Below are positions 5,601 to 28,732 of a DNA stretch of 33,709 nt, in pieces. The stretch's first letter is position 1; each line of letters begins with the position of its first letter. The notes beneath the pieces were generated by a model. It made no database searches, was not told the DNA's origin, and was given only the letters and a program-made list of their open reading frames with translations. Source of the DNA: Klebsormidium nitens (lineage: Eukaryota; Plantae; Klebsormidiophyceae); the NCBI GenBank assembly GCA_000708835.1, contig DF237017.1:1-33709 (forward strand), given 5' to 3'. The translations under genes and the position numbers were made by a program.

Positions 5601-8600
5601 TGTTGCACCATTGCTGAGGCCCAAGACAGCTGAAATCGCCTGATCCAGCAAGAATGTGCAGACAGCCTCGCAAGCAGATTTTATTCAATTCGACAGTTAA
5701 CGACTTCGAAGAAAACCCTTGTTGGTCAAGTTCCCAAACCATAACAAAGCTCTCAAACGGTTCGCAGATGCACTGCACCACGGTGAAGTCCCAGCGCTAC
5801 ATCGATCACTAACCTCCTTTCACCTCATCAAATCCAGGTTTTTCATCAGAAAGAAAAGCGCATACCTTTCAGCTGTTTAACCCTCTTCTTCAATCTGTTT
5901 TCAGGTGCACTGCGTCCACTGCACGACTTCCAAGACCCAGGGCTACATCCACAACGGGTGGCACTTCCTGCCGTGGCATCGCGCCGAGATCTACTATTTC
6001 GAGCAGTCCATGCAGTACTTGCTCCAGGACCCCACCTTCGCCATGCCCTACTGGGAGTGGGACAACCCGGCCGGCAAGTTTGCTCTCCGCTCTAGTTCGG
6101 CTTTTACGATTTTCCTTTTCCTCATTCTCAGCTCTGTCTCGTCATGTTAGCTTCGAGCAGTCAATGCTCCAGGACCCCACCTTCGCCGTATTCTATGGAG
6201 TTGGATAACCGTGCCAGCAGGTTTTGTCTCGGCACTAGTTCCTTCTACGGAATTCTTCATTTTCATCTTCCGGTTCTGTCCGGTCTTCGAGCAGTCCAAA
6301 GCCAATGTTCCTCTGGAAAGTGGGCCAACTCTGATGGCAAAATTCTTCCAGCTTTAGTTGGTTTGGAAATTGTCCATTCTGGTCTTCCGCTCTATAGAAC
6401 CAAATCTGCTTTCTTGCAAAACCTGAATGACAAGGAAGCTTTGCATTTGTCTTTCTTTGCATTGCTTTATTTTTTTGACCAAAGAAGTACGCGTTTCAAC
6501 AATTCGTTGCCAAGCAACAAGTTTTCATGTCAACAACTTATCCTTCAATCAAAGAATTCGATTAGAAAGCACGAGTCATACGAGTTTTGCGTGGGGTTTT
6601 TGCTGCTTTCCTGATGATCGCGACCCAACCTGTTCCTTCGCTGAAAGATCCACGGGTCTCCATCTTGGCAGACATTCCCAACTTACCGAGCTGCACTTTC
6701 GGGACCAGCTTATTCTACGCCCTTTTTCACACTCGTGGCTTACGGCTTTTTCACACTCTTTGGCCGACGGGCTTATTCACACTCAGCCAGGCACTTGGCT
6801 GCTCCCTCAGTACCTGGACAGCAAGTCCGCCCCCGGGGACAGCAAGCGTACCCAGAACTACTTGTGGGTGACAAACCTATTCCTATTCACACTCGTTGAT
6901 GAAACGCATATTCACACTCGTTGACTGACGGGCTTATTCACACTCATTCAGGCACCTGGCTGCTCCCCCAGTACCTGGACAGCAAATCCGCCCTGTGGGA
7001 CAGCAAGCGTACCCAGAACCAGTCTGCGGGCATCTCCCTCATGAAGCGGTACAACTCCCCCGAGGAGACCTACAAGGCGATGACCGGCATCAATGACCCG
7101 TACCTCTTCCACGGTCTGAACGACCCCACCGTCGTAAGTTCTTTTCGGGGACATTTCGGTTGTGAAGAAGATGCGCAACGGTACTTTTGGTATATATATG
7201 GTCAGCTTAGAAACAAATTCAAGCGCGTGCCCTGAAAATGGTTTCGTCTGAAGGCTCGTATGAAGGCTCGTATTATATTGGACTCGGCTTTGTGTTGAGC
7301 CTGCGTGTTGCTAAATCGCGCCTGTTGCTAAGTCACCGTTTCAGAAAGACTCCGGCCGAGCGCTTTTTGGTCGTCGCTTATTCAGCTCGTCAAAGAAATC
7401 GAGCTTTTTCCTGAAGGACCCGAGTTTGACAGCTGTAGGTTCATTCGTCTCCAACGATGCTTCTGAAGATGCCCTCCTGGAAAGTTCCCTTTTTCATTGT
7501 TTCTTCGACTGTGATGGACGCTGGTGTTTGACCCAGAAGAACCCTCCGCCGAGTCTCTGTGGGGAGACGAAAGACCCCGCTCATAGCTAATCTCTTCGTT
7601 TTGACCCACTTCAATTGAACAGGCCTGAATTTCCCCTTCCCAAAGTTTAGCAGATACTTACTGCGTTCTTGCCGATCTTCGAGTCCCCCGCCCCTAGGAG
7701 CTTCGTAAACCGGGGCGCCTGGCCAATTTAAATTAACCCTCGTTGCTCGTTTTGAAGCCCCACTTAACCCTCCGTTTGTTCCCTCCGGTTTGCAGAGCAG
7801 CTACGGCAACCAGAGCACCCTGGAGGTCCTCCACGGGTGGCCCCCCAGCCTAGTTGGTGCCCCGGCGCAGATCCACCTTAAACATTCGTTAACTTCAATC
7901 AACTTTTGTGAACTCTTAACTAACCCTCCGTTTGTTCCCCCGGTTTGCAGAGCAGCTACGGCAACCAGGGCACCCTGGAGATCCTCCACGGGTGGCCCCA
8001 CAGCGCGGTCGGCGCGCAGGCGCAGTTCCAGCCCGGCCTCGACCCGGAGCTCTTCCCCGAGTCCGGCACGTGCGCCACGTGCCGCTTCCACGACATGGGC
8101 TCCTTCACCACCTCCGGCTGGGACCCCGCCTTCTGGTCTCACCACTACAACATTGTACGTAGTTTCTATCGTTCAATTTGTCCTTCTTTGTTGTTTGGTT
8201 AACTCGTCGCATTCTTTTTCAGTCGCTCCAACAGTCTTTCGAGCTCGACTTCTTTTCAATTCGCCTCAGTGGAGCTTGCGCAAACAATCTTGCACGAAGT
8301 CCGCCCGTAAAGGCTAGTTGCTCAAGCCTTCTGGTCTCACCACTACAACATTGTACGTATGTACCGCGAAATTTGCGGAATCGTCCTTTTTTGCTCGGGT
8401 TGTCGAGCTTGCGCTAAGAAATTTGCACGAAGTTTGACCTTTTTTGCACGGGTTGTCGAGCTCGCGCTAAGAGTTTTGCACTAAGTTTGACCGTGGAGGC
8501 TGATCCAAGCTTCTGCAAAATTCGTCCTTTTTTTCTCGGGTCATCAAGCTTCGGCTGGGATTCCGCCATCGGGATCACCAACTACAACATTCTACGTACC

Positions 8601-11460
8601 CGGAATAGCTTCAAAACTTGTCCTTTCTATCTTATCTGTCTGATCCATCTCAAATAGGTTCAAAAGTAAGTCTGAAATCATCCATTTATTTGATTTCGCT
8701 CGTCAAGCTTGCGCAAACAATTCTTGCACGAATTTCGTCGGCTGAAGTCTGATCCTTCTTTCGGTCGATGCTAGGATTGCCGCACGTTCCTTGGACGTTT
8801 CCGCTGTTTGCTTCTTACTTCTTCTCATCACTGGCGCTCCTGAACCCTGTTGTTTGCGTGCTGCTTTCCATCTCCTCAATCCGACTCGAACCCTGGTTCA
8901 GCGCTCTGGCTTCCTCGCAGATCGCAGAATTTTAGAATCCACGTCAATGTTGAACTCGATTACGTGCCTGTCTCCTCATCCCCTTGCGACCTCAGGTTAT
9001 TATTCTTAAAACCGCACACTCTAACCCGTTTTCTGCCCGCAGGACCGTCTCTGGGAGGAGTGGCTGAAGCAGCCTAACCCCAACACCACCTCGGGCGTCA
9101 ACGAGAACTTCGACGAACCCGCGTGGCTCGAGTCGACCTACACCTTCTACCGCGCGGACGGGGTTATGGAAACCATCCAGGTTAAGGACGTCCTCGACAC
9201 CAAGAACCTGGGCTACGTGTACTCGCCCGCGCTCAACAGCTGGAACGCCACCAACTCCGTCAAGTCCGGCGTCGCCGGGCGCGTCGCGGCCGCGGCCGCG
9301 GCCGCCGCACCCGCGGGCGCCCGCAAGCTGCTCCAGTCCGCGGAGCTCCCGCCCGCGCTCACGGTCGACGAGCTGCTCGCGCAGGTACGTCTCGATCTGA
9401 TTACAGTATTCCGAGTTCTGAAAGAACTCTGAAGCAAGTACTTCTCCGATGTTAACAGTAAATACTTGTCCTAAGCAGGATTTATAGCAGGTATGTATAC
9501 ATCTCACATGACGTATACCTCTCACATCTCAGTGTTTCGTTACAGCTTCGTTCTTTGTGAAACTCTAAACCCAAAAGGTTTGCGTGCTCCACAGTGCACC
9601 GACTGTACTGTAACCCACCGAAACCCTCTGTCTAACCCGACTCGTCCCAGCACTGGCTTCTTCTGGTTTCCCCAAGCTTATCACTGTAAACTCGTGCAGT
9701 ACCCTGAGAAGGAGTACACGTACGGCGAGCTGACTCCGAAGCTGGAGGCCCCGGTGCACATCGGGAGGGGCATCTCCCACTGGCGCATCAAGCGCACGCC
9801 GACCACGATCGTCGGCGCGCAGGAGATCCTCATCTTCTCCAACATCTCCGCCCGCATGGACGAGCGTTCCATCATCGAGGTAAGGGACAGCAGAAATACA
9901 CGACCAAACAATCGATCAATAAGGTAAATGACAGAGAAAACAATAACAGACAGCAGAGCTACACGACCAAACAATCAATCAATAAGGTAAATGACAAAGA
10001 AAACAATCACAGACAACCATCGAGGTAAGAATCTAGAGAAATAGATTGTGCTTAATAGTGCCGGAGCATCCATCATCTCCAGGCAAGGCCCGTAAAAGTT
10101 GTTCGGGAGCGCCACGGCGACTCTAAAATCTCCTTCCTCGTTGCTATACTTTGATCGAGCCATCGTAGCATGTTTACAAAGGCCGGACGTCCGCAAGGCC
10201 TCGCACCTAGTTTGCCCTTTGTCCTGCGCGTTTGTGGTCTTCGCACCCTTCCGTTGAAGCTTGGCTTTGATCTCGTCACTGGGTTCAGAGTTGTCGCCGT
10301 CCGTTCTTCGTTTTTGATGAACTTTGTTTTGACCCGACTGAAAAACCATCTCCTGTCAAGAGAGAACGGCTTTGGCCTGATCAAGCAGAAGACTGACCGT
10401 AGGCATGCTGACGATAGCAGGTGTGATTCAAGCAGCCGAGCGTTGACTAACGCTGTGATCGAGAAACCGAACGTGGACTGAAGAGAACGACTTCCGCCTA
10501 ACGACGCTGAAAAAATGTTGCAGGGTTGTATAAGGTCGTAGGGTTCTATTTCGGGCTTTCCGGGTGTAGTCCATTTCCGCTAAGGTTGTGCGCTGACGTT
10601 GGCAGGTGTGGATCAACAAGCCGAACGTGACGATCAAGGACAAGCTGAGCTGGCACTACGCGGGGGCTTTGACCCAGATCCCTATGTCCCCCAACAGCAA
10701 CAACGTCCTCTCCACACAGCTCTACTCCACCGCCAAGAACCGCCCCCTGCAGGTAACCCGCGCTTTGTTGCGCCGCATGCTGGGTTGTACGTGTCTTTTC
10801 AGAGCGTTGACCCCGGCCAAACCGTGTGTTTTGCGTGCGTTTTCAGAGCTTTGAAACCGAGTTTCTCCTGAAGCCGCTGAGCTCTGTCGGACTCTGACAA
10901 ACAGTGCCTTCAGCACCGCTTAAGTTATTGCAACTGATAGATACTGTACGGTTGCGGCAATGCTTGACTTTTTTCGTCATCAAGAATCGAAGGGAAGATG
11001 TCCCGCCCTTAGCAGATAATCTACCCCCTGCTCAAGGCGACTACTTGTATGATTGTGTCATTGTGTCCAACTAACCCCCTGCTCTGCCCGCAGATCAACA
11101 CCGATCTGATAATTTGGGCCTGCTCAAGGCGACCAATTGTTGTATGGTGTCAATGTCTAACTGACTGATTCCACTCCCCGCAGATTAACACCGATCTGTA
11201 CCACCTGGGCCTGCTCAAGGCGACCAAGTGTTGTATGGTGTCAATGTCTAACTGACTGATTCCACTCCCCGCAGATTAACACCGATCTGTACAACCTGGG
11301 CCTGCTCAAGGCTACCGAGCTGCTCATTACGCTGGTCCCCGTCGAGTACTTTGTCGACGAGCAGAACAATGCGTTCCGCGCCGCGCCCCAGTTCAGCACC
11401 ATCTCTCTGGGCGGAGCGGAAATCCATCAAGGAACCCTCAAGTCTTACTTCCAGAAGTAA
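2653..11460 (+). CDS. PPO: Polyphenol oxidase / tyrosinase (type-3 copper), plant PPO architecture with N-terminal signal peptide; ~610 aa, 9 exons
   Basis: Exons 2653-2913, 4517-4678, 5905-6073, 6952-7133, 7951-8154, 9043-9384, 9700-9879, 10606-10752, 11275-11460 join in frame. Motifs: N-terminal PDVLNNC...CCP; CuA QARVHCVHC...IHNGWHFLPWHR...DPTFAMPYWEWD; CuB LEILHGWPH...DMGSF...DPAFWSHHYNIDRLW; DWL-like AWLESTYTFY...VKDVLDTKNLGYVY; KFDV-like C-terminal domain EILIF...IEVWIN...YAGAL...LITLVP. Exons show strong C/G-ending codon bias. Confidence 0.93.
6152..6365 (+). repeat. Two decayed copies of the PPO exon 3 3' end plus donor, within intron 3
   Basis: ttcgagcagtc...gctccaggaccccaccttcgcc...ggataacc...gcaggttt (6152-6260) and a more degenerate copy at ~6286-6360, compared with exon sequence 5998-6130. 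Confidence 0.85.
6765..6862 (+). repeat. Intronic copy of the PPO exon 4 acceptor plus first ~70 nt of the exon
   Basis: gacgggcttattcacactca..caggcacttggctgctccctcagtacctggacagcaagtccgcc...cagcaagcgtacccagaac matches 6927-7019. Confidence 0.9.
7763..7876 (+). repeat. Intronic copy of the PPO exon 5 acceptor plus exon start
   Basis: taaccctccgtttgttccc.ccggtttgcagagcagctacggcaaccag.gcaccctggag.tcctccacgggtggccc matches 7921-8030. Decoy AG at 7795, true AG at 7950. Confidence 0.9.
8326..8760 (+). repeat. Intronic copies of the PPO exon 5 end plus donor, with associated intron repeats
   Basis: Exact 34-nt copy gccttctggtctcaccactacaacattgtacgta at 8326-8359 (= 8128-8161). Decayed copy at 8552-8598. 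Interspersed repeated gagcttgcgc.aa....ttgcacgaagt units. Confidence 0.9.
9886..10030 (+). repeat. ~63-bp tandem duplication after the PPO exon 7 donor, ending in a donor echo (catcgaggtaag)
   Basis: acagcaga..tacacgaccaaacaatc.atcaataaggtaaatgaca occurs twice. catcgaggtaag at ~10018-10029 equals the true junction 9873-9884. Confidence 0.8.
11010..11310 (+). repeat. ~90-bp tandem array of the PPO last-exon acceptor plus exon start (3 decoys plus the true copy)
   Basis: CAG acceptors end at 11015 (decayed), 11093, 11183 and 11274 (true). Each is followed by a version of attaacaccgatctg...gggcctgctcaaggc. Confidence 0.92.
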
Positions 11461-13090
11461 AACTCGGTTAACTGGTTAACCCTCGTCGGAGGCGGAGAGG
11501 AAAACTTGGTTAAGTGGTCAACTTTCGTCGGCGAAAGTCAGGCGAAGAGTGCTTTGCTAACTGGACCGTAAGTTCAGCAGCACGGGTTGGTCGAGAGTCG
11601 TCGTCGTTGGAGCCCCCCGAGTCTTAGCGAACCGGGCGGGTTAGTAGTAGGGTTAGGGACGTGGTTTTCCAGTCCCCGGAGCGTGCGTAACCGGGCCGTT
11701 TAGTAAGGATAGAGATGGGGTATCAATCGCGGTCCGTGAAAGTGTTGGCAAGCACGTGGGAGGAAAGGGGCGCATCGATTTTCGCCCGTACAGTCTCCTT
11801 TCACCGCCGTCTGTTGTGCTCTGCAGAAGTTTCTTAGCGGTTATACGCCACTTGCATCCGTCAGCAATAAAGCGCAGGCGGTCATTGACCAAGTTGGAAG
11901 CAGGTGTTGTAAAACATTCGTTGCGCTGGTAGCAGGTCAAGTGGGTGCATTGCTAACGAGTTGCACGGTCGTGTGCTGTCATTGTTTCGGCTGAAGTACG
12001 GTATGCCAGGTGTCAGTCAAACCAAGACCATCTTTATTGTTGATGCAAGACCATATGTATTTATGTTCTGAGTTCAACGTCAGTCAATTTTCCCCTCTTC
12101 GAACAGATGTTGAATCTTACACATGAATGGCCCATGGTGAACGCTCCTTGTTTAGCGTGCTCGGACCCTAGATATGTTGACCCGCGTTGCAGGGCTAGGG
12201 GCCTGTCGCCAAGCTTCCTAGTATGGTATACGAAACCAGCTCGACAATCAGTCTTAGTATGCTCATTGATCTACACGCGCCTTCGCTTTGCATACCAAGA
12301 GTAATCAACCCTGTTCGGTCATCCATGAAAGCTAGACAGGGGGCCCTCCTCTTTTTGCAACTTCCAAGGTCATCATGTGCACACATGTACAAGAAGGGCG
12401 CAGCTACAGGCAAATTGCTGCAATATGCTGTTCAGGCGTACATGCATACTACATTTGGTCCATCAGCAATTAAGCGAATGCACATACTCAAAAGCTTTAT
12501 ATATATATCCGGCCCGCATAAACACCATGTACTAAGGACGGTTGCCGCGTGTGAAGGTATATTCCATATCTAAAGGTGTTGGCGCCGCGCGTTGACTGGC
12601 ACCTACAACCCAATTATCACGCGCGCTCAGCGCGATCAGTCTCGCACGGCGCTGCGGCCAGAGTTACAAGGACATGCATGATAAGGGCAACATACAGAAA
12701 ACATGATCATGACATGCAAGCACGATTCACATATCGATGCCGGTCAAAGGTCGGCCGCGCTGGCATTCGACAATCATTGCTGCGCTGCACACCGTCAACT
12801 AGTCATGCCGCGCTGCTCGTTTATAGTTTGTCTTCAAGAGATTTCGAGCCCAATTCGGTGGCACGTACAGTGTTTTAATGTGCCCGCTTTTCTATGAAAG
12901 TGACTTGAAGTCAAGGCCGGCCTTCTGGCAGCCGCCTTGGACTTCATGTCCAATTGTACGAAGCATGTCGCAGCTACTTACAATGCCACCCCATCTGCCA
13001 ATGAGGTTTTAAGGAGAGCTACTAAGGTCCCAAGATAAGTCACTCTAGCGTGCAACTCCGAGACTCTCCGACTACCTCATCACTTGGATC

Positions 13091-13277
13091 AACCTCAAGA
13101 AAAACAATAGTAAGCCGAGACATTAGGAAGGTAACCGCACTGGGACGGGTAGCTAGGGTTAGTTTGGTAATTAGGGTGGTACGGGTGCGGAGCGGGTGTA
13201 TTTCTGGGTTAGGGTTTTTATTATTAGTCGGAGCTTATAATTATCTTGGCTTACTAAGTTTCAGCTTTCTTGAGTTT
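13091..13277 (+). repeat. G-rich conserved motif, copy 3 (~13141-13225), inside a third inverted repeat (13091-13128 / 13236-13277)
   Basis: gggacgggt...ttagggtggtacgggtgcggagc...gggttagggttttta. Arms ctcaagaaa...tagtaagccgaga / tcttggcttacta...tttcttgag. Confidence 0.8.
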
Positions 13278-13503
13278 TATAGTACTTTGTACCGTCCCGT
13301 CACAAGCGCCGGTTGACTTGCTAAGGCTCCTACTGTAATGATTGACAAGCTGGAGAGAACGCCAATGAAACCAAGCCTCCAACTATGTACGTCCACCGAA
13401 TCGTTATTGGCAAAGCTCCTCATCAAGTCGACTGATCTTCTTCATTGCGTAAGTCTTCTGCAGCAAAGGAGTGCCATGTCAACGAGCTGACGTGTGCGCT
13501 TTG

Positions 13504-16500
13504 TCACCTGACGCCTTCGGGAGACCAGCAAAACCGCTCGTTCTTGTTGAGTGCCAAGAGCGACGCGACGTCCTCTCCTTCTAACTCGAAGTCGAAGTCG
13601 AAGACTCTCGCATTTTCCTCGATCCGCTCCTTCGTGACTGATTTTGGGATCACGACTGCAAGAGAACAGAAAGACTCCTGGAACGTCCGAAGATGCTGGG
13701 ACAAAAGTAGCAGAAGGCGAACGTTGCAAAATCACACACCGAAAAGCCGTCAAGATTTCATAAACATCGCTGAGTCCTTCAGGCCAAGGACGGATTGGAA
13801 CAGAATAAGGTCTAAGCTCTGTACGACCTTGGGCTCTAGAACCGGCCTAGTTCTTTGCAAGACCAGTTGCTTGCGAATCGGAAAACTGATTCTTCAGCAA
13901 CCGAGGCCACTCGGAACAAGAAGACGTATGATATCATCCCTCCGACGTAACGGATAGAGGGAAGGCGTTGAAGCATGTGGCTCGAGGGAGACGTTGAGAA
14001 TACCGGGTTTGATCGGCTTGTAGGTTTTCAATCTGTCACTCTCTGAAACAGGTTGCGGAGTGTGACAGGCTTCTGACTGTTTTTACAATTGGACTCCAAA
14101 ACGCATTCTCTGCAAATAACCTTGCGCATATGACATTGTATCAAGGAAACGATCCAGCTTGTTCCTTTGTGAACACAAGTATTCTGGCACATAGATAACC
14201 CTGGTTACTGATGCCCCAGGTCTTCGTAATTCTCAAGAGCCTGAAAGACACCTAGCCCCTTCGCAATCCCAGAACTTCAAAACCTGTTCCAGCACCCATT
14301 TGCTTACTTAAAACCGCACCGCAAATTTTGGAGCACTTTGTCTCCTTCGAAACACAGGACCACGAATTCGTGGTTGTCAAAGCTAGACGAGATGTAGGAA
14401 GCAACATTTTGTAAAAAGCGTGATATCGGAACAGATCCGGACTTCCGACCCGCCCAAAGTACATTACTCACTCAGATTGGTTTGGAGCCCCCACCGCAGC
14501 AGGACCTGAGCGGGAGTACGTCCGAATTTGTGCGCCAACCGGACGACCGTGGCGTCCGAAAGGAGCTGCGAGAAAGGAAGAACTAGAGTCGGCTGCATTT
14601 CGTACCGTCGAGGGTAATTCAAGGCAAGGCGCTCAAGGGATTTCCGAGGGGCTGCGTCCGTATTTCGCGCCAACCGGACGACCGGACGACCGTGGCGTTC
14701 GAAAGGAGCTGTGAGAGATGCAGACCTAGGGTGGGCTCTGTTTTTATCACCGTTAAAAGGGTCAAAAAGCAAGGCGCTCAAGGGATGTCCAAGGGGACGC
14801 TGTGCTGCGTCCGTATTTCAGCGCCAACCGGACAACTGTGGCGTCCGAACCGAGCTGCGGAAAGAGAAAAGTAGAGCTGCATGTCGGACCGTTGGAAAGT
14901 ACTGAAAGGCAAGGCGCTCAAGGGATGTCAATAGGGACACGGGGCTGCGTCCGTATTTTCGCGCTAACCGGACAACTGCGGCGTCCGAACGGAGCTGCAG
15001 GAACGCAAAAGTAGAGCTGCATGTCGGACCGTTGGAAAGCCTCCAACACCCCGGGCGCTTGTGCAGGGCTAAGAGGAACCCGGGCTCAAAGAACCCATCC
15101 CTGGGCTGAGTCACTTCCTCGGTCGCCGATCTGCTCCTAATGGTTCTGTTCAAGAAGAGTTGCAAGAGGCGAGACACTAAGATGAGATGCAATCTGAACT
15201 GTCCACGTGTGTTCGATTCCTGGGACGTTTACGGAGGGTTCCAAACGGGGAAAGACCGGATTCAAAACACCTTGTGACTTGAGCTGATTATCCTCGACGG
15301 TTGCTGATCCGGTTCCTTTTCCGTCTCGTTTGATAGGAGCTGACGGAAGTTCAAGGTGGGCTGCTTTTCGGACGGTCGGGCCAAAGTGTCCGAGTGGCGA
15401 GGCGCCCCAAGTCGTCAACGGGACGGCCCTTGGACGTCTTCAATTTGAGCTACTTCGCTTTCCTTGTTGCAAGTCGATTCACAGTGGCTGTTCGAGTGTC
15501 CGCTTGCAGCAGAGCTGTGCGGCGAGACGAAGAAGGTGCGCTGCTTCTCAAACGGTAAATATTATGGTCCGAAGCAGACAAAGAACGAAACGCGGGTAAC
15601 TTTCAAGGTCTTGACGTCGCTTCCAAATGCAACGAGACGTTACGCGTACCGGTCCCTTTCTTCCTTGTACTCAAGAGGTGTTTGCAAGTTCTTTCAACTT
15701 TCCCTTTACCGCAACGTTTCTCACATCCGGCTAATCCGGTAAGTCGCACCCGCAATCTGACCTCGCCGCAGCGCAGCGGTATATGCCCTCCCACAAGAAT
15801 GCCCACAAAAGTCAAAATGTTGAAAGCAATTTCCTGTTCTGGTTAGGATGTGCGGTGCTTAACATCAACAACGCTATCTTGCCGCAACCTAGGGGTGAAT
15901 GCACTTTCACACAAATGTAATCGCTCACAAAAATGTCAAAAATGTAATTCGAATACCCCTCAAGTTCCGACCTGCGGTCATTTACACCAGTAGTCTTACC
16001 TCGCCGCAACTCGGGTGGATACGCCTCCACACACATGCCTTATCACGCAGACGTAAACGTTGTCGTAGACTTAGTAACTACTCTACCATGGACGTGCGGC
16101 TCTTCACACGAGCACTCTCACCTCGCCGCAAGCCCAGGGGTGAATACGCCTCCGACTCGATGCCCTTGCTCACAGTAATACCGAAGAATCGATTCTCGAA
16201 TACCCCTCAGCTTCCAATCTGAAATTATTTACACAGTTAGTCTTACCTCGCCGCAGCCTAGGGGTGAATACGCCTCCACCCGGATGCCCTTGCTCGCGCA
16301 AAACTCCCGCAGCCCCTCTTGCGTGAGGTACGGGTGTACCTCGATCTGGTTCACTGCGGGCACTACGGACGATGCGGACAGCAGCTCCTCGAGGTGCGTC
16401 CGCAGGAAGTTGCTGACGCCGATCGAACGGCATCGGCCTGCAAAACGGAGTCAAATACTTCGTTCTCTCAGACTTTTTGGAACTGCACCTTGCGGTCTCA

Positions 16501-19344
16501 AAATGCTGAGGCTTCAACCTCGTTCAAATTTGGGAACTGCGGACGGTGCGGACAGCAGCTCTTTCACGGCGTCCGCAGGAAGTTGCTGACGCCAATCGAG
16601 CGGCATCTTCCTGCGAAAGGACATCTCGTTCATGTCTGGTGTCCTGACTCTACTCCTTGCGGTCTCAAAATGCTGAGGCTTCGATCTAATTTGCTTTCGA
16701 AACGGCGCACTATATGGACAGTAGCCCTTCTAGGTGCGTCGGCAGGAAGTTGCTGACGCCAATCGAGCGGCATCGGCCTGCGAAACGAAAGGTAGCGGAC
16801 CCTAGGTCCTCCGTTTCAGGTTCTCAGATTACAGGCTTTTTTGATGATACTGTAACTATGTAGTACGAGGTTCTCGAACCTCGATAAGGAGTCCTTCGCA
16901 ACATAAACGACAGACGATGCGGAGAGCAACTCCTCCATGTGGATCCGGACGGAATCACGGACGCCGATCGAAGGGCATCAGCCTGCGTCGTGCATGTCAC
17001 TGGGTTCTCAGGCTTATCTACTAGGTTGGACGCTGTCTAGACAAGCACACATGTTCTTGTTCGACACCATCCGCTGACTCTAAATTTCAACCTTTGAATC
17101 CAGCACAACAGACGATGCGGACAGCAGCTCCTCCAGGTGCGTCCGCTTGAAGTCGCTGACACCAATTGAGCGGCAAACGGTCGCCGGGTTTCAAGGGTTT
17201 CGTCGAGAATCGGTAATCTGGATGTGGTAACTAGCGGTTCCAGTAATCTGCGGCGCCCCGTCAGTCAAACGGACGTCGCTAAGGACTGATGAAGGCCTCC
17301 GAAACAAGGTGGTAGAAGAGAAGGAGCAGAACCGGCTTGTGGTAATCGTGGAACTACCGAACGGGTGCAAAGCTGGGACGTTCTGCTATCCCATTTAACC
17401 ACGTTCTAAATCACCGAAGAGCTTGTTACTGCTGACCCAAAAAACGCCATTCATCCTTCTCAGCAAGTAGACTTCGCAGCAATATCCAACGGTCTCGGTA
17501 ACTTATCCAAGATCACAAGACAGGATCAGCCGTGCAAGATTCGTGGATCAGTCCGTTTGATCCCAATCGAGTCACTACCTAAACAGACTACATCCATCAG
17601 CCGACCACAGACTATGTATCCTTCATGATATCCCCAGACCATCGGGTTTAGGGTAACCCACTACAAACAAGAATAGTTCCTGAAAAATTCGTACCTTCTC
17701 GGAACGCCTCCTCCATGGCCCGCCACGTCTCATGCCGCAAGTGAACGTTCCGTTCTGACGTCACCGGAACGGAGGAAGCCCCGGGCCAGTGAACCAGATA
17801 CAGATCCAAGTAGTCGGTCCCTAATCGTGTGAGGCTTTCTTGCAGGGCTTTGCGCGCCTTCTCGTACCTGTGGCCCTGGAAAGGGGGATGCTTTCAGAGG
17901 GTCGTTTTACCCCCCTGGAAAGATAAACTTCTGTTCCTGCTTTTCCACTCTTTCTAATTTGTGTACTCTGAGCACTGCCGATATTGGTACCTTGAGGGTC
18001 GTCGCTTATCAAGGACGAGTCTAAGCACTTGTCAAATGGGCAAGGACGAGTCTAATCCTGTCAAATGGGCAGAAATTAGCACGTCTAGAGCAGCCAGGAA
18101 CCAAACACGGGAACAGCAAAGTCGAAGCAATGCATTACTGAGCAGACTCGAAACCGTCATGCACAGAACACGAAAACAGTTTGATTCTCTAGGATTCACG
18201 AGGACATGGCGCGCTGGCTCACCCTTGTTGATAGGGCGACACTTTGCTGGTGATAAAGAGACTCTCTCGGGCTACCCGAGAGTCTCGAATAGCTTCGGCG
18301 ATATCCTCCTCATTCCTGTCACAAGAACAAGATTGGCCCCATTGAATATTGGTGCCTTCTTTTATTTCTCTCCGTTCTGTCCCCTTGAGGAGTTTGGCGC
18401 AACTCCTGGGCTTTCAGGTGCTTTCACGGGAGGAGCTACTATACTCCGCTTTCAATAATCTTCGCTCTTAGACTGAACCCCAGAACGGCTCTCCTCTCTG
18501 ATTGGAGCCAGGATCAGAGTCCCTCATACCCTCATAGATTTGGGGGACATTTTTCTTAAACCGATGCAAACATTAGTGAGCCAAGCGACAGAATCGCGGA
18601 TGGTATATGGGCAATAAAAAGACAGGGGGATTATAACACCACTTCAGCTCATTTTCATCAATCGGGCAAATCAGCAATCGCAAAACGCGTTGATGAACCA
18701 ACGCAGTTCCAGCGCATGAAGTGTCGAGCCCATTGAGGGACTGTACTTTGCTCACCTGTAGATTGATGCCGTGTCGATATGTCGATACCTGCACAAATGG
18801 GACACAGTGATTTGCATCAGCACACAGAGATTGGCAGAGACGTCTAGTAGGCCAGCCAACCTGGTTCTCAGAAGAGACTTAGTCAGAACAAGCACCACAG
18901 GACCACTACCGTAAAATTTAACCTGAGACTGAACCAGAGACCGAACCAGAGGCTCAATCAGAGGCTCAACCAGACACAGGAAGCCTTTCTATGCACTGTA
19001 GAGCGCAAGTGTGAGGTGTGGACTTTCGCTGATTTGCTTGGTGCGAATGGGGGAGAGCTACGCGATTCGAAAATGTTGGTGTCCCAATCCAGAAGACACT
19101 GTAATCAGCCCTTGAAATGCAGTGCCACCGCAAAAGGCAGCACTTAAACTTCAGGTGCGGGTGTTTGATGCTGACTCTTCCAAAGGGCTCAGTGTAAGGT
19201 GGCCTACCCTGCCTCAATTGCCCACTTGACTGCATTTCTGACGTCCACGCCCTTCGCTTTGTAGGTTCCCAGGCCGAGCACTGGCATCTCGAACCCCGTG
19301 TTCAGGGTCACGCTAGATGTAAGTGCCGCACACTCTGACGCCAT
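13504..19344 (-). CDS. Aldo-keto reductase (NADPH-dependent, AKR superfamily); 290 aa, 7 exons
   Basis: Exons 19344-19208, 18788-18756, 18315-18223, 17867-17695, 16437-16247, 14565-14472, 13655-13504, all GT-AG and in frame. Motifs: [86 protein letters not shown]...RIEEN. The catalytic D/Y/K/H tetrad is present. Confidence 0.93.
14600..15040 (-). repeat. Three intronic copies (~140-bp period) of the AKR exon 6 acceptor plus exon start
   Basis: gcgccaaccggac.ac.gtggcgtccgaa.ggagctgc repeated at ~14668, ~14821 and ~14961, compared with the true sequence 14532-14570. Confidence 0.9.
15755..16245 (-). repeat. Four intronic copies (~120-bp period) of the AKR exon 5 end plus donor
   Basis: (t)acctcgccgca...ggggtgaatacgcctcc at ~16118, ~15993, ~15876 and ~15758, compared with the true sequence 16243-16280. 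Confidence 0.88.
16438..17180 (-). repeat. Four intronic copies (~175-195-bp period) of the AKR exon 5 acceptor plus first ~70 nt
   Basis: gacgatgcggacagcagctc...gcgtccgcaggaagttgctgacgcc.atcga.cggcatc..cctgc at ~16540, ~16715, ~16912 and ~17111, compared with the true sequence 16367-16441. Confidence 0.9.
18010..18072 (+). repeat. ~31-bp tandem duplication (AKR intron 3)
   Basis: caaggacgagtctaa...tgtcaaatggg occurs twice. Confidence 0.8.
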
Positions 19345-20224: not shown

Positions 20225-23200
20225 ATGGCAGCCGTGCAACAATGTTTGGTGAACGGAGCGCCGAGGTCACATCCAGGCTTTCCTAGTGGCAGCAATCAAG
20301 TTGCTTCTTTCACATTCATTCAAACGGGTGCTAGAGGTCCAGTATCTGCTCGTTGCTTGCTGCCGGCGCACTCATCAGCTTCAAAACCAATCTGCACTTC
20401 TCATAAGGATTCTCCCAGATCTGCCTTTTCCCTTGGTAGCTCCCTTTGTGGAGCTAAGCTTCGTCCAGCAGAAAGGGACATATTCTTCAGCTGCAGACAG
20501 TCGGCCCAGTCTTTCTTCATCGGGCATCGATCTGGATCGCCAGTAAGGGTTAAGGCAGCAGCTCAGGCGCAGAGTATTCAGCAGGCGGAAGAGACAAAGG
20601 ACAATCAGTTCCCTTTCCACCTGGACACGGCAGTCTTGCTGGCAGGGTTTGCGTTTGAGGCGTACAACGATGCGGAGGTGAGAGGAATGGAGGAGTCCTC
20701 TGTAATGCAGCAACCTGAGCTGACTCCAGATGACAACTATCAAGAAATGTGATCGTGTTCAAATCATATTGCCAAAGTTTTGTGCCTTGCAGATCAAGTG
20801 AGGCATCAAGTAGAATATCAAGAGGAGCTGGGACGACAGTACACAGCAGCATTTACCCTCTTTTTTGCAAGCTTCAGTTGGCTCTTACTGCGTGCAGCTT
20901 CTGACTGGTCATAGGCAGATTTTGAAACCTTTCTCTTATTGTGGGGCAGTTAAAGCAGTACTCAACACGTCTGGAAGAATAAACACAGTTAATGCTGAGC
21001 ATACTGGAAGGTGGCATAATGTGTCGTGGCGATCCTTTGATTGTCCGGTCAGAGCGGGCAGAGTCTGCCGATTGGAGACCAGTTCTTGTCTGCAAGTGCC
21101 CCAAGCTGCTCTTCCTCCGGTTGGGGGCAGCCTTCCTTTCAAGTAAATCAGATTCTCAGAGGCTGAGGAGAGTACCTAGGACTGTCCTTAGTCTAGTGTC
21201 CTCCTGTCGATCCTCGACATGTACCCTTTCTTTCGTTCTTCTGAGCTTCTTGGACTAGTATCTTGTGCATATCATTGCTGATTAAGGGGCGGTAAACTCG
21301 CTATTTCGGAAGCACCAAGCTTGCTGCTGAAAAACAATAAACTCGGATCTCTTGCAGGAGGGTATCCAGGAGCTCAGCTCCTGTGGGACAGAGAGCATCT
21401 TCCTGAACGAGTAAGTGGACTTCCCAGTAATGAACCTTCCTGCTCTGACATCAGCAAAGCAGATTCTCCATATTTAGGAACTTGTTCAGGCTGGCTGCTT
21501 CCATGTTATACTGCGCAGAACTCGCTGCTATTTCCTCTGCCTATTGCCTTATCAAAAAGCAGAGGCTGTCTATTTGCGTTAATCACCATGAAGCCAATCA
21601 ATCATCGGAGGCCTGTACAGGTTTAGTTGGCGGCACTGCGAGGGGCCTATGACGCGCAGATGTTTCTTCGTCTGAGGAACTGGACTTGTCCATCGATGCG
21701 AAATGTTGAGCTTTGGTTCTTGTTACAAGACTTTCTTAACTCGAAAGATGCAATTCTCTGCAAGTACACTGGAAGAATCTCCAGCGACCTGCCAAAATTT
21801 CAGAATGTTCGTGAGACTCTTAGCTGCCTCGCCCGCTTGTACTCAATATGCAGACTTCTCTTACGGAACCGCATGATCGATCTGCGCCACTAACGCGCGG
21901 TTGATTGCTTTAAGCAGGGACTTCGTCAAAGAGCTGTACCAGGGTCAGCTGAAGGTGAAGCTTGAGTCGGCTTCTGACCTTCCCGGGAAGAGCCTGACAG
22001 GAACAAGCGATCCGTACGTCGTTCTCACGGTTGGGGACAGCATGGTCCGGAGCGAGACAATGTGGAGGTGAGGAGCTAATCGTTTCCAACTCTATGAATC
22101 CTGGGAACCGGAAGGCTTTGAGATTAGACGCTGAGATGTGATTATCTAGCTGTGACGACGTTGAATCACAACTCCCTTTTAGGAAGTGCACTTTCTGGTC
22201 GAGACCAAGATCAAGAGAACGCTGCTTTGTTCGATCGTCTCAATCTGCTTCGCAGAAGTCCTGTATGAAACCGGTGTCTCGTTGGTCCTTCAGCGACGTT
22301 GGCCGGAGGGTGAGTTGGGATCGTTTCGATGCTTTTTGACGCTCTCACGCGCAACCTTTGTAAAGCTTTAGGAGTTTAAGCGGGCCAAAAGCCAAGACCG
22401 ATTTCCGGGCTTGCTTCACTGGAGACAGCTTCACTTGCCGCCTTCGCCAAGCAATGACAAAGACCCAAGGTTCGTCCTCTTTTGCGGCACCGAATGGCTC
22501 AGACGTACGAAAGCGACATGATGTGATACGACGTACAAAGAGGATTGTTACCAGGCTCTCTGTTGAACTGAATGTGCATCATCGTATTTATCGCCATTTG
22601 TTCTTCTTCAGGGACCTGGCTCCCACGTGGAATGCTGATTTCAGCATCTTCGTCAGTGACGCATCCCGGCAGTTGTTAAGCGTCCAAGTCTTCGACGAGA
22701 ACGTGGTCGGTTCGGACGTTCTCCTTGCGAGCGGATCCGTTCCGCTGGACGGGTTAACGGACGGTTCCGAGCAAACCCTGGAGGTTGACCTGCACACGGA
22801 CCTGGACGACACGAAGAGTGCGGAAGGCGATTCGGATGCGGCTGGTCCGAAAGTCCTGTTAAAGGTTCGGTTTGAAAAGATAAACGAGGACACGGTTCTG
22901 AACCGGACGTTGAAAGCCAAGAAAGAGGAAGAAGAAGAGAAAGTGGGGGCTAAAGAATTGGTCGAGAAAGTGTCTGGTGCGTTGAGGTTGGGGAAAGAGG
23001 GCGAAGGAGAAAAGGCGAAGCTCGGGTTCTCGACCGATCTATGGGGGTCTCATAGCGAACGGGAGTTGACAGAAGGGGAGGACGTAGAGGATTTGAACGA
23101 TTCCGAGTCGGACGACGACGATGCTGACGTGGAGGTGACGTCAGCAGGCAAGAAAACGTCGCCGAACGCTGCTCAAAATGGCCTGAAAGGCCAGCGGACA

Positions 23201-26200
23201 GGTTCCGACGAAAAGCGGACGGGTTCGGACGGAAAGCGGGCGGGGGGAGGATTCAAAGCGAGCGTCCGAACGGCGGAAAAGCGTACGGGAAAGAAGAAGC
23301 CGGACGGCTTTTCGACGGACCTTTGGGGGACGCACAGCGAGCGGGAGCTGTCAGAAGAGGAGACGGTCGAGGATCTCAACGACTCCGAGGACAATGACGA
23401 CGACGATGACGTCAGCGATGACGAGGGCGCCCCGTCAGCGAGCGTACGGCGCAAGGAGAAGAGAGCGAAGGTCGTGGAGAGCGCCCGGGAGAGCCTGCTA
23501 GAGAGCCTGAGCCAGGCGGCCAAGGCTGGGGGAAGTCTAAAGGTTCCGGCGGGGCGGGGGAACGGCCCCAGGCTGGGGCTCGGGAAGGCGTTGCTGGCGT
23601 TCGCCACGTGTCCCTGTCCGTGCTGTGTTGCCGAGTTGCTTTCGGACGGTCCGAACACGGTCCGCGCGGTTCCGGAAACGACAGTTAGTGAAAAGGGGAC
23701 AAGTCCGCAAAACGGGCCGGAAAACGCGGCGGAAGTTTTGGCCTTGAAGCACCTGCTAGAGGTGCCGTGGCGGGAGCGGAGCGGTGCCCTTTGGAACTCG
23801 CCAAAAGCGCAGAAGGAGGTGATCGTGGAGAAGAAACTAGAGCGGGAGCAGAATGAGATGGCGCGCGTGTTTGCGGACGCGGAGAGCGCGGTCGAGGCGT
23901 GGGCGGTCCTGGCATCTTCGCTGGGAAAGCCGGGTTACGTGAAGTCCGAGTTTGAGAAGATGGTTTTCGTTGACCACCAGGGGAGCGACACCCAGGTAAT
24001 TCGGATCCCGGTTTTGAGTACTCGTGACTTACAGTCTTTAGGAGTATGGTATTTGGCTGCTTTCAAAACTTGTCTAAGTGCATCTCGTTGGAGAGGTAAG
24101 AATGTGTGAAAGCTGCAACTGAGCGCCAGATACAGAATAGAACTTCTATCTACAACCATCCGTCCTTAGGTGCATTTGCACTTCCCAGAACGATTCTGCC
24201 GACTCAAATTTCTCTCCGGAAAGTTCTTCGAGCCTGCTGTGTTCAACAGCGAAGTTGGATCTAACGCATGGTTCGACAATATGCAGCGGTGATTTTGTGG
24301 TTGGTCAATAGATGATAGGATTCACTGCTTCAAAGCGAGAGGTTTTTTCAAAAAGGCGAATCTCAGCTGCTTTACCTGGTTTTGTTTCTATCAGGCAGCG
24401 GTCTGGAGGGATCCCCGGCGGAAGAGAATTGTTGTGGCGTTCCGCGGGACGGAGCAGACGGAGTGGAAGGACCTCGTTACTGACGTCAACCTGACACCAG
24501 CAAAGTGAGGGTCCTGTTGTTGGTACTTTGCCATGAAAAGCCTTCAAATGCTTGGTAAACGAAGCTCAGGAGGGTGCGGAATCTGATTGCAAACCGTGGA
24601 GGACGAAGAGTAATTGGTTGGGGCTTGGAATGGCAAACAGTGTACGACGCGTGCTCGTAAGTCGCACGTAGTTGTCAGACGAACGGTCAGAGCCCACGAA
24701 CTGATCCACATACCTCAAAATATCTTTTCTAAGCAGGAGCCCCACACTCGCAAGATTCTTCCTGATATTGAAGGCCTGACGTTTCGTAAGTAGAAAGTCT
24801 GCGCGTCCGTTCTCTCAGGACCAAGATCGACGGCGAGGAGGTGTGCGTCATCCCCGAAACGAAGTATTTGATGTATAAAAGTTACCCTTTCGAAGTCCAA
24901 ACTTTGCACGTCTACTTCGTCAGGTTCGAGGTCGACGGCGAGGAGGTGCGCGGCGACGGCGAAGAGGGCGACATCATCCTGCACGGCGGTTTCAAGAATG
25001 CGTACGACTCTGTCCGGAGCCGTCTCCGGACGATCGTCCGAGCGCTCAGCGAGGAGCCGGGGCTTCCACCGCCGGGAAGGCTTGACACCAGCACGGCCGG
25101 CGCTGGCACTGGAGCAGGCGCCAGGAGCGGCGGTGTCAAGAAAAGCACTGGAGTGGGAGTGCAGAGGGGAAATGACACGTGGAGTCTTTTGGTTACTGGG
25201 CATAGTTTGGGGGGCGCTCTCGCGACCCTGTTTGCGGCGGAGATGGCGATGGCGGCGGAAGCGGAGGGGGCCCGGATCGGGCACGTGACCATGTACAATT
25301 TCGGTGAGGGGCCAGAAAAGTTTCCAACTAACGACCCGCTATGTTACCTAGGCTGCAACTCAATGAAGAGGTCTTACTTTTCCTTCAGCACCTTCATTCA
25401 GCTGTCTTACTCATTTCTACATATGTTACCGAGTAATGGTCTGAGTACAGAACCTTGCGAGTTCCTGATCCTTTCTCTACATCATTCCTTGATTCACTCC
25501 GACTTTCCAATCCTTTGATTTGGTCTCGGGTTATGGCGTTTTGCTCAGCAACAGAATGTTGCAGTCGACGGCAGGCCAGGTTTTGACCTGTGCCAGAATT
25601 GCGCGCCTCGCATTGCCACCTGTGCCAGAATTGCGCGCCTCACATTGCCTCCGTCGTTCGCTCCTCTGATGAGTTGCGGAAAATCGGCCTCTTTTCATTG
25701 GTCAAGTCAAAAGCGGTGCGCTTCACTCTTGTAGTACGCCGATTGCTCTTCAAATAAGTTGCTCTCTTTCCAGGTCTTCAAAATGAGCTTAATGTGTAAC
25801 TCTGAACCTTCTAAATTTTAGACAATCTGAAATGCAATCTTACAACCCTGGATTCCCGGTCAGAGGTCGTAAGAGATGCCTACACTTTTCTGACACACTC
25901 TTCACGGTTTTGTTTTGCAGGGTCGCCGCGAGTAGGGAATCACGCCTTTGCCGACTTTTACAACAGGTACGCGGCGCTCTTGTCATCTCCCAGACGATCG
26001 TTGCCTCCAGTGTAAAGCAAAAGAGCTTGAAAGGCAAGACAGAAATGGTTGCGAGGGGTGCAAAGGCGAAAACTGAAAACACCGTCTCTCCGGGTTGTTC
26101 CGTTTGGGCCGCAGTTGATGGTCACGAAGGTCCGATCAATTGAGAACCGGCCAAGCCGGCCAAATCTTGCAGCTTGCGAATTGATGCGGTCTCGATTGTT

Positions 26201-28374
26201 GCAATCTGCCACAGTCGCTGCCTTTGCCCTGTTCTCGATAATGCATCTCTGCTCGAATCTGTGTGCGGTACATCCTTCTTTCCTCCACTTCGTCCATTCG
26301 GATGTCCGCTCAGAAAGTCCGCGCAAAACGTCTTGGTCCAAATAAAATCACATTTAAGCCAATCATTCTCGTAAATGCTGGCGCCAGAACCAGACGTTGG
26401 TACACCCGTCACCCTCTTATTCCGCAAGCAATCCCGGCTGCAGACGAGTGCCGGACACGTGGCGCCTCGTCAACCGCAACGACGTCATCCCGACGGTCCC
26501 GCGGATGCTGGGCTACTGCCACGTGGGCAACGCTCTGATCCTGGGCGACAAGCCGGGGGCGCCGGTGAGAAACCCGTTTGGGTTTGGATTTGGGTTGGAC
26601 TCGGCGCTAACCTGGTCACTCAACCAGCTTTTAGGTCGTTTTGTGGATTGGCTTGGACATGGTTTTGGTGCACAGTGTGTAAAGCATCGCCTTTGTCCGC
26701 ATATCAGATTCGGACGAGCTATCTTCGGGCAATGATGCTGTATTTTGAAGCTGTTAACCACTCAAGTCAAGTCACGTAAGGCTTTTCGTCTCGTTTCACC
26801 CCTTCCAGACGTGCACTTGACACCTCGGGCGTTGCCCTCGCGAGTCTTTCCTCTCGCAGAAACTCGCTAGTGTAACTTAGGCGTTGGGAAGCCAAACGTC
26901 GTGGCACTCTTCTGTACCCTAGAACCCTGATTGTTGACATCCTTCATTTCTTACCACCCTTACAACCTGAAACCATTCTTACTCCTAGTCCACAGAAAAT
27001 GAAATTTCCGATTCAGATCTTTCTATCCTCAACCCGGTAAAAATAGGCTTAGGACGTCCACGTCCTTTCAAGGTTTCACGGTGCTTTGACCATCACCAAA
27101 CCGACGTCCAAACTGTGGGCGTCAAAAATACGACGTCGGTCAGCACTTGCGGGTGACGATCTTCGGATCCCGACTCTCAATTTAAGCTGAACCTCAGGAG
27201 TTCTTTCCGTAGGTTGGGGCCGAGGAGCACAGCTCGGACGATCCTTGGCCATCTTGCACTCTAGAAAGCTAAATGTTGACAATCTTGACTTCAAACGACC
27301 TTTACATCCTGAAACTATTGTTTCTTATAACCAGAGATTCTCACCCCTCTGATGCAGATCTTTCAAGGGTTAAGCTAACCTTAGATCGTCTTTCCGTAGG
27401 TTGAGGCCGAGGAACACAGCACGGACGATCCGGACGTCGCGGAAGCGGACGCCCAGGAAGACATACTGGGAGAGGTGTCCGCAAAGGACTTCCTGCCTAA
27501 ACTGGTGAGACCGAGAAACATGCACTCATCTTGCTAGTCTGCTCGAACGAGTTTGGCGGCTGATTGGTCTCAGCCTTTCTTTTCGTAAGGTCGGTTGACT
27601 TTGTCCAAGGCTGGTTTAGGTATTGCGGACTTTGCATCCAATACTGCTGAGCAGCTTCTAAGCCTTTGAATCCTTGTCTTACTGCCGCGGTCTTAGGAGG
27701 TACACAGAATCTCAGAACTAGGTCTTGCATGATGCATCGTCTACCACCGCGGCAACACATGGGACCAGGTCAAAGGAGCTTCTTATCCACGTTTGCTTTT
27801 CTCAGTGTCGCAAAATTCTCCTTCATATTCACAATTGTTTCCTTTTTTGAGTTTCCAGTTGGCTTCTGTTCAAAACACGCTTGTTTCCTTCTTATGCACA
27901 GTTGAAAGGCGAGAAGACCCTTCTGAAGAAGGTCGTCGAGAAAGAGCTCGCGATCCTGGACGCGTTCACGGACGGCAGCGCGCTGCTCCAACACATGGAG
28001 GACTTCTATTACAAGGCGCTGCTGCAGGTGGGCATTTCCTCCAACTTTCCTTCCCTCTGTTGAAGACTTTCCTATGCTTCCGTCACGGATTTGGGGGTGG
28101 ATAACGAGGAGCGACTGTTCAAGTCTTCGTACCGCTCTCTAATTCTCCGCTATTTACCTTATCAGCCTCAGCTTTCATCCCCTCTTCCTTTATCTAGTTC
28201 CTAAAGGTTTTATACCTCCTCAAATATTATTCTGCGCTCGAACAAGTCCCTCCTCCCTTCTCTTCTTCCGATCTCGCTCTTCCGATTGTAAATGACTTTG
28301 CGCATCTTCGCACGCAGATGGTGGAACTTCACATTGGCAGGGGCGTTGATACTCCGCAAGTCGCCCAGGCTTGA
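20225..28374 (+). CDS. C2-domain class-3 lipase, likely plastid-targeted, HIL1/At4g13550-like; ~994 aa, 11 exons
   Basis: Exons 20225-20677, 21358-21410, 21918-22067, 22612-23995, 24395-24504, 24924-25303, 25921-25966, 26444-26564, 27400-27504, 27902-28027, 28318-28374 join in frame. Ser/Ala/Arg-rich transit-peptide-like N-terminus; AVLLAGFAFEAYN; C2 domain GTSDPYVVL...PTWNADF...VQVFDENVVGSD; lipase motifs VVAFRGTE, HGGF, TGHSLGGALA, YNFGSPRVGN, NDVIPTVP, and C-terminal DGSALLQHMEDFYY. Confidence 0.9.
23023..23425 (+). repeat. Coding internal duplication in lipase exon 4
   Basis: GFSTDLWGSHSERELTEGEDVEDLNDSESDDDD and GFSTDLWGTHSERELSEEETVEDLNDSEDNDDDD, with RTGSD(E/G)K 21-bp repeats between them. 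Confidence 0.85.
24805..24848 (+). repeat. Echo of the lipase exon 6 acceptor
   Basis: tcaggaccaagatcgacggcgaggaggtgtgcg compared with the true tcaggttcgaggtcgacggcgaggaggtgcgcg (24920-24952). Confidence 0.8.
25586..25650 (+). repeat. 32-bp tandem duplication (lipase intron 6)
   Basis: acctgtgccagaattgcgcgcctc(g/a)cattgcc occurs twice. Confidence 0.85.
27182..27245 (+). repeat. Echo of the lipase exon 9 acceptor
   Basis: ttaagctgaacct...tctttccgtaggttggggccgaggagcacagctcggacgatcc compared with the true 27370-27431. Confidence 0.85.
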
Positions 28375-28732
28375 TTGATTATCTCTTGGGCGGATTCAGT
28401 CGACCTTGTCACTTGACTCCCGCAGATTACAGGCCCTCTTTTCACTGTCGGTTGCATGGCTGATATGTAGTGTGTGTGTGTTGTCAGCACTTTGTACGGC
28501 GGTTTTGCGCGTTGAGGGTTATAGAGTAGGAGTTGTTGCGAACATCAACCGGGACGGTCAAAATATTGAAGACATTGTAGGCTATAGAATTAGAAAGACC
28601 TCGTTGCTTTGCGGATTGACGCTGACGATACCTAGACGACGCGTTTGGTCAAAAGAACAATTAGCTTAGGCCTTTTATGATGCTATGATGCAATCTATAA
28701 ACTGCGACTTGTATGCTAGACTTTCGTAAACG

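Follow-up and report, generated by a model that had tools for sequence, protein, structure and literature searches.

Three neighbouring genes in a 33,709-nucleotide (nt) stretch of the Klebsormidium nitens genome (contig DF237017.1, positions 1 to 33,709; hereafter the window) contain, within their introns, direct tandem copies of their own splice boundaries. The genes encode a polyphenol oxidase (PPO), an aldo-keto reductase (AKR) and a C2-domain class 3 lipase. We consider it likely that the copies arose by duplication followed by re-amplification, that they decay neutrally and that, in PPO, they are skipped in RNA. An earlier note on this DNA had described them as a pervasive 'splice-junction echo' system; they are likely harmless duplication debris and not a functional 'system'. 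Such copies form a known, little-studied class of repeats, of which the window is a dense and well-supported case in a lineage for which no report was found.

Splice boundaries are copied in adjacent introns

Gene models for the four genes of the window, the fourth being APC10, were built from RNA joints and open frames, and comprise 30 introns with 60 splice boundaries. Direct copies lie in the adjacent intron at 12 of these boundaries (PPO 7/16, AKR 3/12, lipase 2/20, APC10 0/12; Table 1), in agreement with the at least 12 junctions of the earlier note and with its observation that APC10 lacks echoes. The copies total 24, with one to four per affected boundary. Each includes ~23–97 nt of exon, and the first periods, measured at 91–198 nt, match the 90–200 base pairs (bp) given previously.

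In the boundary scan, 40 exon and 40 intron nt were aligned to the boundary's own intron, with the introns of the other genes serving as the null. Strong matches were obtained at 11 of the 60 boundaries, with scores of 47–152 versus null maxima of 23–28 (PPO donors 3 and 5 and acceptors 3, 4, 7 and 8; AKR donor 5 and acceptors 4 and 5; lipase acceptors 5 and 8). PPO acceptor 2 is borderline here, its score of 29 equaling the null maximum, and reaches 38 in both the unbiased and the exon-only scans. Exon-only queries of 45 nt (score at least 34) match on the expected side at 11/60 boundaries, while matches on the wrong side (0/37), in inverted orientation (0/60) or in other introns of the same gene (0/206) are absent. 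The strict polarity claimed before, with spare acceptors upstream and spare donors downstream, is therefore observed, but it does not count as separate evidence, because a copy can function only if it is joined directly to the body of the exon, and the geometry is thereby forced.

The nearer copy is the more similar one in 16 of 18 within-array pairs. Degradation with distance, also claimed previously, thus holds as a tendency, but it is not strict: at AKR donor 5 the intron part of copy 2 has a similarity of 0.69 to the real boundary, versus 0.39 for copy 1. Moreover, a gradient is expected, because any tandem-array history yields one. Together the copies occupy 3,554 of 19,928 intron nt (~18%). 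Introns that contain them have a median length of 856 nt versus 458 nt for the others (p=0.001), and the gap is lost once the copies are subtracted (527 versus 458 nt, p=0.47), which bears out the suggestion that local duplication lengthens introns.

Other classes of repeat describe the arrays less well. Whole-exon tandem duplication was rejected because only 23–97 nt of the exon edge are copied, the interior and far end remaining uncopied, and because the ratio of nonsynonymous to synonymous divergence (dN/dS) is 0.49, with indels. A classical minisatellite or variable number tandem repeat (VNTR) was rejected as well, the arrays instead having units of 91–198 nt, one to four extra copies and ~70–98% identity. 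By whole-window blastn the arrays match only their own neighbourhood, and they were accordingly not assigned to introners or mobile elements.

Table 1. Arrays of boundary copies, the non-boundary array and the genes that carry boundary copies. A slash separates the two positions that flank a boundary; offsets are in nt from the real boundary.
Feature	Coordinates	Strand	Details
PPO acceptor 2	5760..5949	+	Real 5904/5905; one old copy at 5767/5768; exon part 27/36 identical, intron part unalignable; offset 137, not a multiple of three
PPO donor 3 (GC)	6012..6400	+	Real 6073/6074; downstream copies +143, +263, both retaining GC
PPO acceptor 3	6726..7030	+	Real 6951/6952; one copy 6790/6791; unit 161 nt, with 25-nt internal repeat
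PPO acceptor 4	7750..8030	+	Real 7950/7951; one copy 7795/7796; unit 155–156 nt
PPO donor 5	8112..8755	+	Real 8154/8155; copies +198 (GT kept, exon nt 27/27 identical) and +437 (GT lost); 53-nt repeat nested at 8385–8492
PPO acceptor 7	10407..10631	+	Real 10605/10606; one copy 10420/10421
PPO acceptor 8	11012..11319	+	Real 11274/11275; copies start 11184, 11094, 11016; copy at 11184 98% identical, same as real acceptor over 46 intron nt
AKR acceptor 5	14511..15039	-	First exon base 14565; copies 14708, 14854, 14994; possible fourth remnant around 15330–15390
AKR donor 5	15744..16304	-	Last exon base 16247; four copies ~+124, +249, +369, +485; includes two-unit block duplication
AKR acceptor 4	16341..17190	-	First exon base 16437; copies 16610, 16777, 16982, 17180
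Lipase acceptor 5	24782..24963	+	Real 24923/24924; one copy 24818/24819
Lipase acceptor 8	26902..27431	+	Real 27399/27400; one copy 27212/27213; further similarity, intron-only, at offset ~342
Non-boundary long-unit array	30561..30961	-	APC10 intron 4; three ~131-nt units, 80 nt from acceptor
PPO (polyphenol oxidase/tyrosinase)	2653-11460	+	9 exons, 610 amino acids; model identical to P0001
AKR (aldo-keto reductase)	13504-19344	-	7 coding exons, 290 amino acids; model identical to P0003
Lipase (C2-domain class 3)	20225-28376	+	11 exons, open 994-amino-acid model

Weak matches at PPO acceptor 4 (at 255 nt), AKR acceptor 5 (at 768 nt) and PPO donor 7 (at 145 nt) were excluded from the 24 copies. 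At 9881–10030, a 63-bp duplication begins one base past PPO donor 7, and behind it come 12 nt that match the donor. It is possibly a decayed thirteenth echo, though the match is weak, with 7 exon nt only, and is left uncounted.

There is practically no chance that the copies are assembly artefacts. Contigs of a DNA run (X1) tile 4480–11480 with 0 differences, except for a gap at 9203–9314 in exon 6. They end at two near-identical repeats, where double-depth contigs (39–40 versus 16–22) cover 8128–8161 at PPO donor 5 and 11229–11292 at PPO acceptor 8. This best DNA run may be the sample from which the window was assembled, but low-depth unspliced contigs from other studies also match copy regions exactly (X5 at 7594–7869, 10296–10563 and 10731–11167; X6 at 10731–11167). 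Furthermore, the copies are 70–98% identical and have indels of their own. Misassembly, one of the outcomes that the earlier note named as undoing its reading, is thereby refuted for PPO. Diverged contigs of another run (X20) jump between AKR units, showing that a related genome carries related arrays.

Copies are skipped in PPO RNA and decay at a neutral rate

No listed run is recorded as RNA, and the label RNA-like is provisional, although the contigs contain GT-AG joints; uncovered bins in such runs were ignored unless spliced contigs join across them. In all three RNA-like runs, the complete list of joints within PPO 4480–11480 consists of the seven authentic ones only. PPO depth in these runs is about 970–1170, 1010 and 110, whereas contigs over the decoy stretches have a depth of 3–9. 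No decoy joint is found in the spliced contigs of the three runs, the decoy at 11184 included. The earlier expectation that the spliceosome ignores the decoys is thus borne out for PPO, and the recursive or unproductive use that it offered as the alternative leaves no sign in the PPO contigs. As the acceptor 8 decoy is skipped despite its 46-nt identity, the alga does not simply use the first good acceptor after a donor. At AKR intron 5, the authentic joint is present in four runs, among the joints listed. Run X5 also contains unspliced contigs over AKR introns 5 and 6 (13626–14501 and 15449–16276) at ~1/10 of exon depth; they are not specific to the copies, because AKR intron 6, which has no array, shows them too.

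Use of a decoy would cause a frameshift or a stop in 19 of the 20 decoys tested. The sole one to keep the frame open is the lipase decoy at 24819, whose 105 nt (24819–24923) would insert 35 amino acids.

The sequence of the copies shows no sign of selection. Between real exons and copies there are 122 nonsynonymous differences over 846 sites and 74 synonymous differences over 278 (22 of the 24 copies, with 8 indel events among these). The resulting dN/dS is the 0.49 given above; an unconstrained copy paired with a real exon that accepts silent changes only should give 0.5. Splice dinucleotides are kept in 21/24 copies in boundary-centred alignments, an apparent excess that disappears with exon-only anchoring, where 15/19 copies keep them versus 13.1 expected (p=0.23; 5/24 copies with a weak diagonal were left out). 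Since both dN/dS and dinucleotide retention are close to neutral, selection neither removes the copies nor preserves them, and from this neutral decay we infer that they have no function of their own.

One contrary proposal is that the copies are functional decoys kept by selection, for regulated unproductive splicing, recursive splicing or as enhancer arrays. Consistent with this, AG is retained in 15/16 acceptor copies in the boundary-centred alignments, the first PPO acceptor 8 copy and the real acceptor are identical for 46 intron nt, and the lipase acceptor 5 decoy is in frame and free of stops. However, a branch-point motif (CTRAY), a pyrimidine tract and AG are retained together in only 3/16 acceptor copies, and the previous statement that many decoys carry the full motif was overstated. 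Together with the neutral dN/dS, the exon-anchored retention and the lack of decoy joints for PPO in three runs, this makes selected decoys very unlikely.

All three copies at AKR acceptor 5 encode KYGRSP in place of the KFGRTP of the real exon. Among 76 homologs, F at this position is outside the five commonest residues and Y is second. The copies may therefore keep an older state of the exon.

Proposed origin of the arrays

Each array would have been founded by one tandem duplication of 90–200 bp at the DNA level, extending across a splice site, and then re-amplified by slippage or unequal exchange between copies. Duplicating a single boundary would spare the exon, as the copy joined to the rest of the exon would stay functional. 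The gene would survive since the exon-adjacent site is used, presumably through exon definition or decay of wrong products; RNA contigs show use of this site for PPO and AKR intron 5. Selection would remove most duplications that stay within an exon or take in all of it, and the net effect of the copies would be longer introns.

The arrangement of the units is consistent with re-amplification. Serial copies have common unit ends in all four arrays examined, at ~+38 in PPO acceptor 8, ~+54 in AKR acceptor 5, +97 in copies 1–2 of AKR acceptor 4 and ~-55 in AKR donor 5. Copy-to-copy duplication is seen at AKR acceptor 5, where copies 2 and 3 have a similarity of 0.86/0.70, and a two-unit block is seen at AKR donor 5, where the real boundary resembles copy 2. 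The ends of the founding junctions are too decayed for microhomology to be read.

Copies might instead have been written into DNA from RNA, through repair templated by mRNA or by splicing intermediates, as the earlier note had also considered. This is extremely improbable. In the copies it is the true intron end, not the upstream exon, that adjoins the exon edge, and there is no sign of templating by mRNA. Exon–exon junction queries gave matches in 3/30 cases, but these fall where the upstream exon ends in an acceptor-like sequence, and the copies fit the real intron end too. Copies that span a donor are impossible to derive from mRNA or from either step-1 splicing intermediate, because cleavage at the 5′ splice site has occurred by then. 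A pre-mRNA template would leave the same traces as a DNA template. Direct support for RNA templating is absent, and vertebrate repair-mediated splice-site duplications use DNA templates, according to the available part of their description (PMC2671141).

Arrays are in excess at exon edges in the window

Several results weigh against so simple a history of local duplication and neutral decay. First, the intron parts of the AKR acceptor 4 and donor 5 copies have similarities of 0.28–0.52 in most pairs, with exon parts at 0.53–0.82. This gap, present even between copies, is more than simple equal-rate decay would fully explain; intron sequence prone to indels, or conversion by the real exon, could be behind it. 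Second, low-level use of decoys is possible: contigs lose rare variants, so that the PPO result represents the main splice form, and the RNA view covers PPO and AKR intron 5.

Third, and of greater consequence, the arrays are not placed as chance would place them. An unbiased scan for non-exonic arrays with units of at least 90 nt, using random placement on de-duplicated genes as the null, revealed 13 long-unit arrays, 12 of which span a boundary versus 37.5% expected (p=6.5e-5, or p=0.004 if boundary copies remain visible twice as long). Masking the exons gives 9/10 versus 34% expected (p=4.5e-4), and inclusion of short units gives 12/18 versus 32% (p=0.002). The lower bounds of the odds ratios are 3.0, 2.4 and 1.5, respectively. 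Boundary duplications are thus more frequent in this window than under random placement, and the earlier note's own refuting condition, that they be no commoner than other intronic tandem duplications, does not hold within it. A toy model of a selection ratchet, combining longer visibility with collapse that is blocked once the decoy is damaged, gives a 1.0–1.5-fold enrichment over five settings, and passive selection therefore falls short of the excess; the ratchet was rejected as its cause.

The array in APC10 intron 4 (30561–30961) lies within one period of the acceptor at 30480. It was considered as a decayed echo and rejected, its similarity to the exon edge not being significant.

A possible, if rather doubtful, explanation of the excess is that mutation directs the founding duplications to exon edges throughout the genome. 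Triggers could include, for example, breaks, nicks or fork stalls linked either to GC-rich, CG-methylated, nucleosome-bound exons or to pauses of the spliceosome during transcription. Targeting is compatible with neutral copies, because it concerns only the site of formation. Besides the counts of 12/13 and 9/10 and their odds-ratio bounds, it is favoured by the masked scan, in which all 9 boundary arrays score at least 38 from intron-derived sequence alone, and by the 7.5 kb of non-genic sequence, which has no long-unit array scoring above 35, the null maximum. GC content is 0.60 in exons versus 0.48 in introns, and CG gene-body methylation correlates with expression in K. nitens, as stated in the available part of PMC5890265. 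In addition, PPO, which has the deepest contigs, has the most arrays (heterogeneity between genes p=0.018), although contig depth reflects expression poorly and the runs were found with PPO. On the other hand, most repeats with short units (31–63 nt) lie in the interior, as the null predicts, APC10 contributes 0/12, and the evidence comes from one window of n=13 that was chosen for its pattern.

The excess in the window is real, and we think that it mixes a mutational preference for breakpoints in or near exons with the selection of the window, the two being inseparable here. A search with the motif of a repeat element in viral, metagenome and genome contigs returned 0 further Klebsormidium loci, and 64 pattern matches to PPO in metagenome contigs included none that was confirmed.

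Relation to mirages and other precedents

The earlier note knew of no standard name for this feature. Such copies are the 'mirages' of amphioxus, tandem duplications across an exon–intron boundary described in the globins BflGb6 and BflGb9 and in Adh3 (PMC3087553), and also in troponin C and PGBD5 (PMC3902484). The comparisons made here draw on the available parts of the papers cited. In the window the unit spans an authentic boundary at the 12 boundaries, and the copies are direct and head-to-tail with a shared unit phase. As in amphioxus, both 5′ and 3′ boundaries are affected (PMC3087553), many but not all copies keep AG or GT (here 21/24, or 15/19 when exon-anchored), and normal splicing is undisturbed (here PPO and the AKR intron 5 joint). 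Unit sizes are also comparable, with 150–160 bp in the amphioxus globins, for which the mechanism was called unclear, and 91–198 in Klebsormidium (PMC3087553). There are differences, however. The host is a streptophyte alga, the copies are older (~70–98% versus 81–100% identity in amphioxus) and fewer (1–4), and 12 junctions are affected in three neighbouring genes.

Isolated human cases share part of this organization. In the 37-bp VNTR of F7 intron 7, the first repeat spans the boundary, the downstream donor copies are silent and the exon-adjacent donor is used, although this is a short homogeneous minisatellite at one locus (PMC1557585). The F7 pseudo-sites were shown experimentally to be functional once the authentic site is lost (PMC1557585). 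In CBS c.844_845ins68, the last 52 nt of the intron and the first 16 nt of the exon are duplicated and the upstream copy is spliced out; unlike the copies in Klebsormidium, it is one young, polymorphic copy and masks a pathogenic variant (PMC7490669).

Within the plant lineage, a tandem duplication in potato RdRp also crosses an intron–exon boundary, but it created a new intron, whereas the Klebsormidium copies are unseen in spliced RNA (PMC4974935). The vertebrate repair-mediated duplications are likewise local, measure 50–619 bp and include splice sites, yet they are closely linked insertions at break sites, in contrast to serial head-to-tail units with shared ends (PMC2671141).

In the literature searched, with most subscription journals outside it, we found no description of mirages for Klebsormidium or other algae, and the words 'intron' and 'repeat' are absent from the main text of the K. 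nitens genome paper (PMC4052687). The amphioxus mirage literature has no genome-wide null model in the parts covered (PMC3087553). The present case allows neutrality, RNA silence and excess over a placement null to be measured together in one window. An excess that held genome-wide would be a sign of a duplication mechanism linked to exons and of a simple way for introns to lengthen. Rather unlikely, in our estimate, is the stronger proposal that tandem duplications of roughly nucleosome size (90–200 bp) arise at exon edges several-fold above chance throughout the Klebsormidium genome and, by recurring at the same junctions, are the main route of intron growth. Were it true, this bias would also account for the mirages of amphioxus and of other invertebrates, mirages would tie DNA duplication to exon architecture in a general, as yet unquantified way, and identical decoy acceptors would let exon definition in the plant lineage be tested naturally across whole genomes.

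Gene models and other features of the window

The copies mislead gene prediction. The models were compared with spliced contigs and database proteins; a search with exon sequence gave proteins of Klebsormidium nitens at 100% identity. Spliced contigs confirm all 8 PPO junctions, AKR introns 5 and 6 and the first lipase junctions; the AKR joints 14565/16247 and 13655/14472 are present in 4/4 runs, among the joints listed. The positions of AKR acceptor 4 and of lipase acceptors 5 and 8 come from the open frame and database proteins. The PPO protein has the Pfam domains PF00264 and PF12142, AKR has PF00248, and the lipase has PF01764 (Lipase_3) and PF00168 (C2). The APC10 model has an open frame with six GT-AG introns and matches Pfam ANAPC10. 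Residues 83–994 of the lipase model match the database protein P0123, whose shorter N terminus implies additional introns within lipase exon 1 (20225–20677); unbroken RNA contigs across 20000–20675 favour the longer 994-residue model over the P0123 start.

PPO intron 3 (6074–6951) is a GC-AG intron and is spliced in all runs examined. The large acidic exon of the lipase (23001–23423) contains an in-frame 282-bp duplication that is 76% identical, and a 21-bp repeat is found at 23193–23244 in the same region. Degenerate tandem repeats of 42 bp and 60 bp are present in the PPO 3′ untranslated region (UTR; 11456–11721).

At 909–1678 there is a ~770-bp element with 32-nt terminal inverted repeats that are 91% complementary. 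An end related to it lies at 13139–13257 in the AKR 3′ UTR, where many RNA contigs end loosely, which suggests a multi-copy family resembling miniature inverted-repeat transposable elements. A second inverted repeat (844–904/1011–1071) overlaps the left end of the ~770-bp element.

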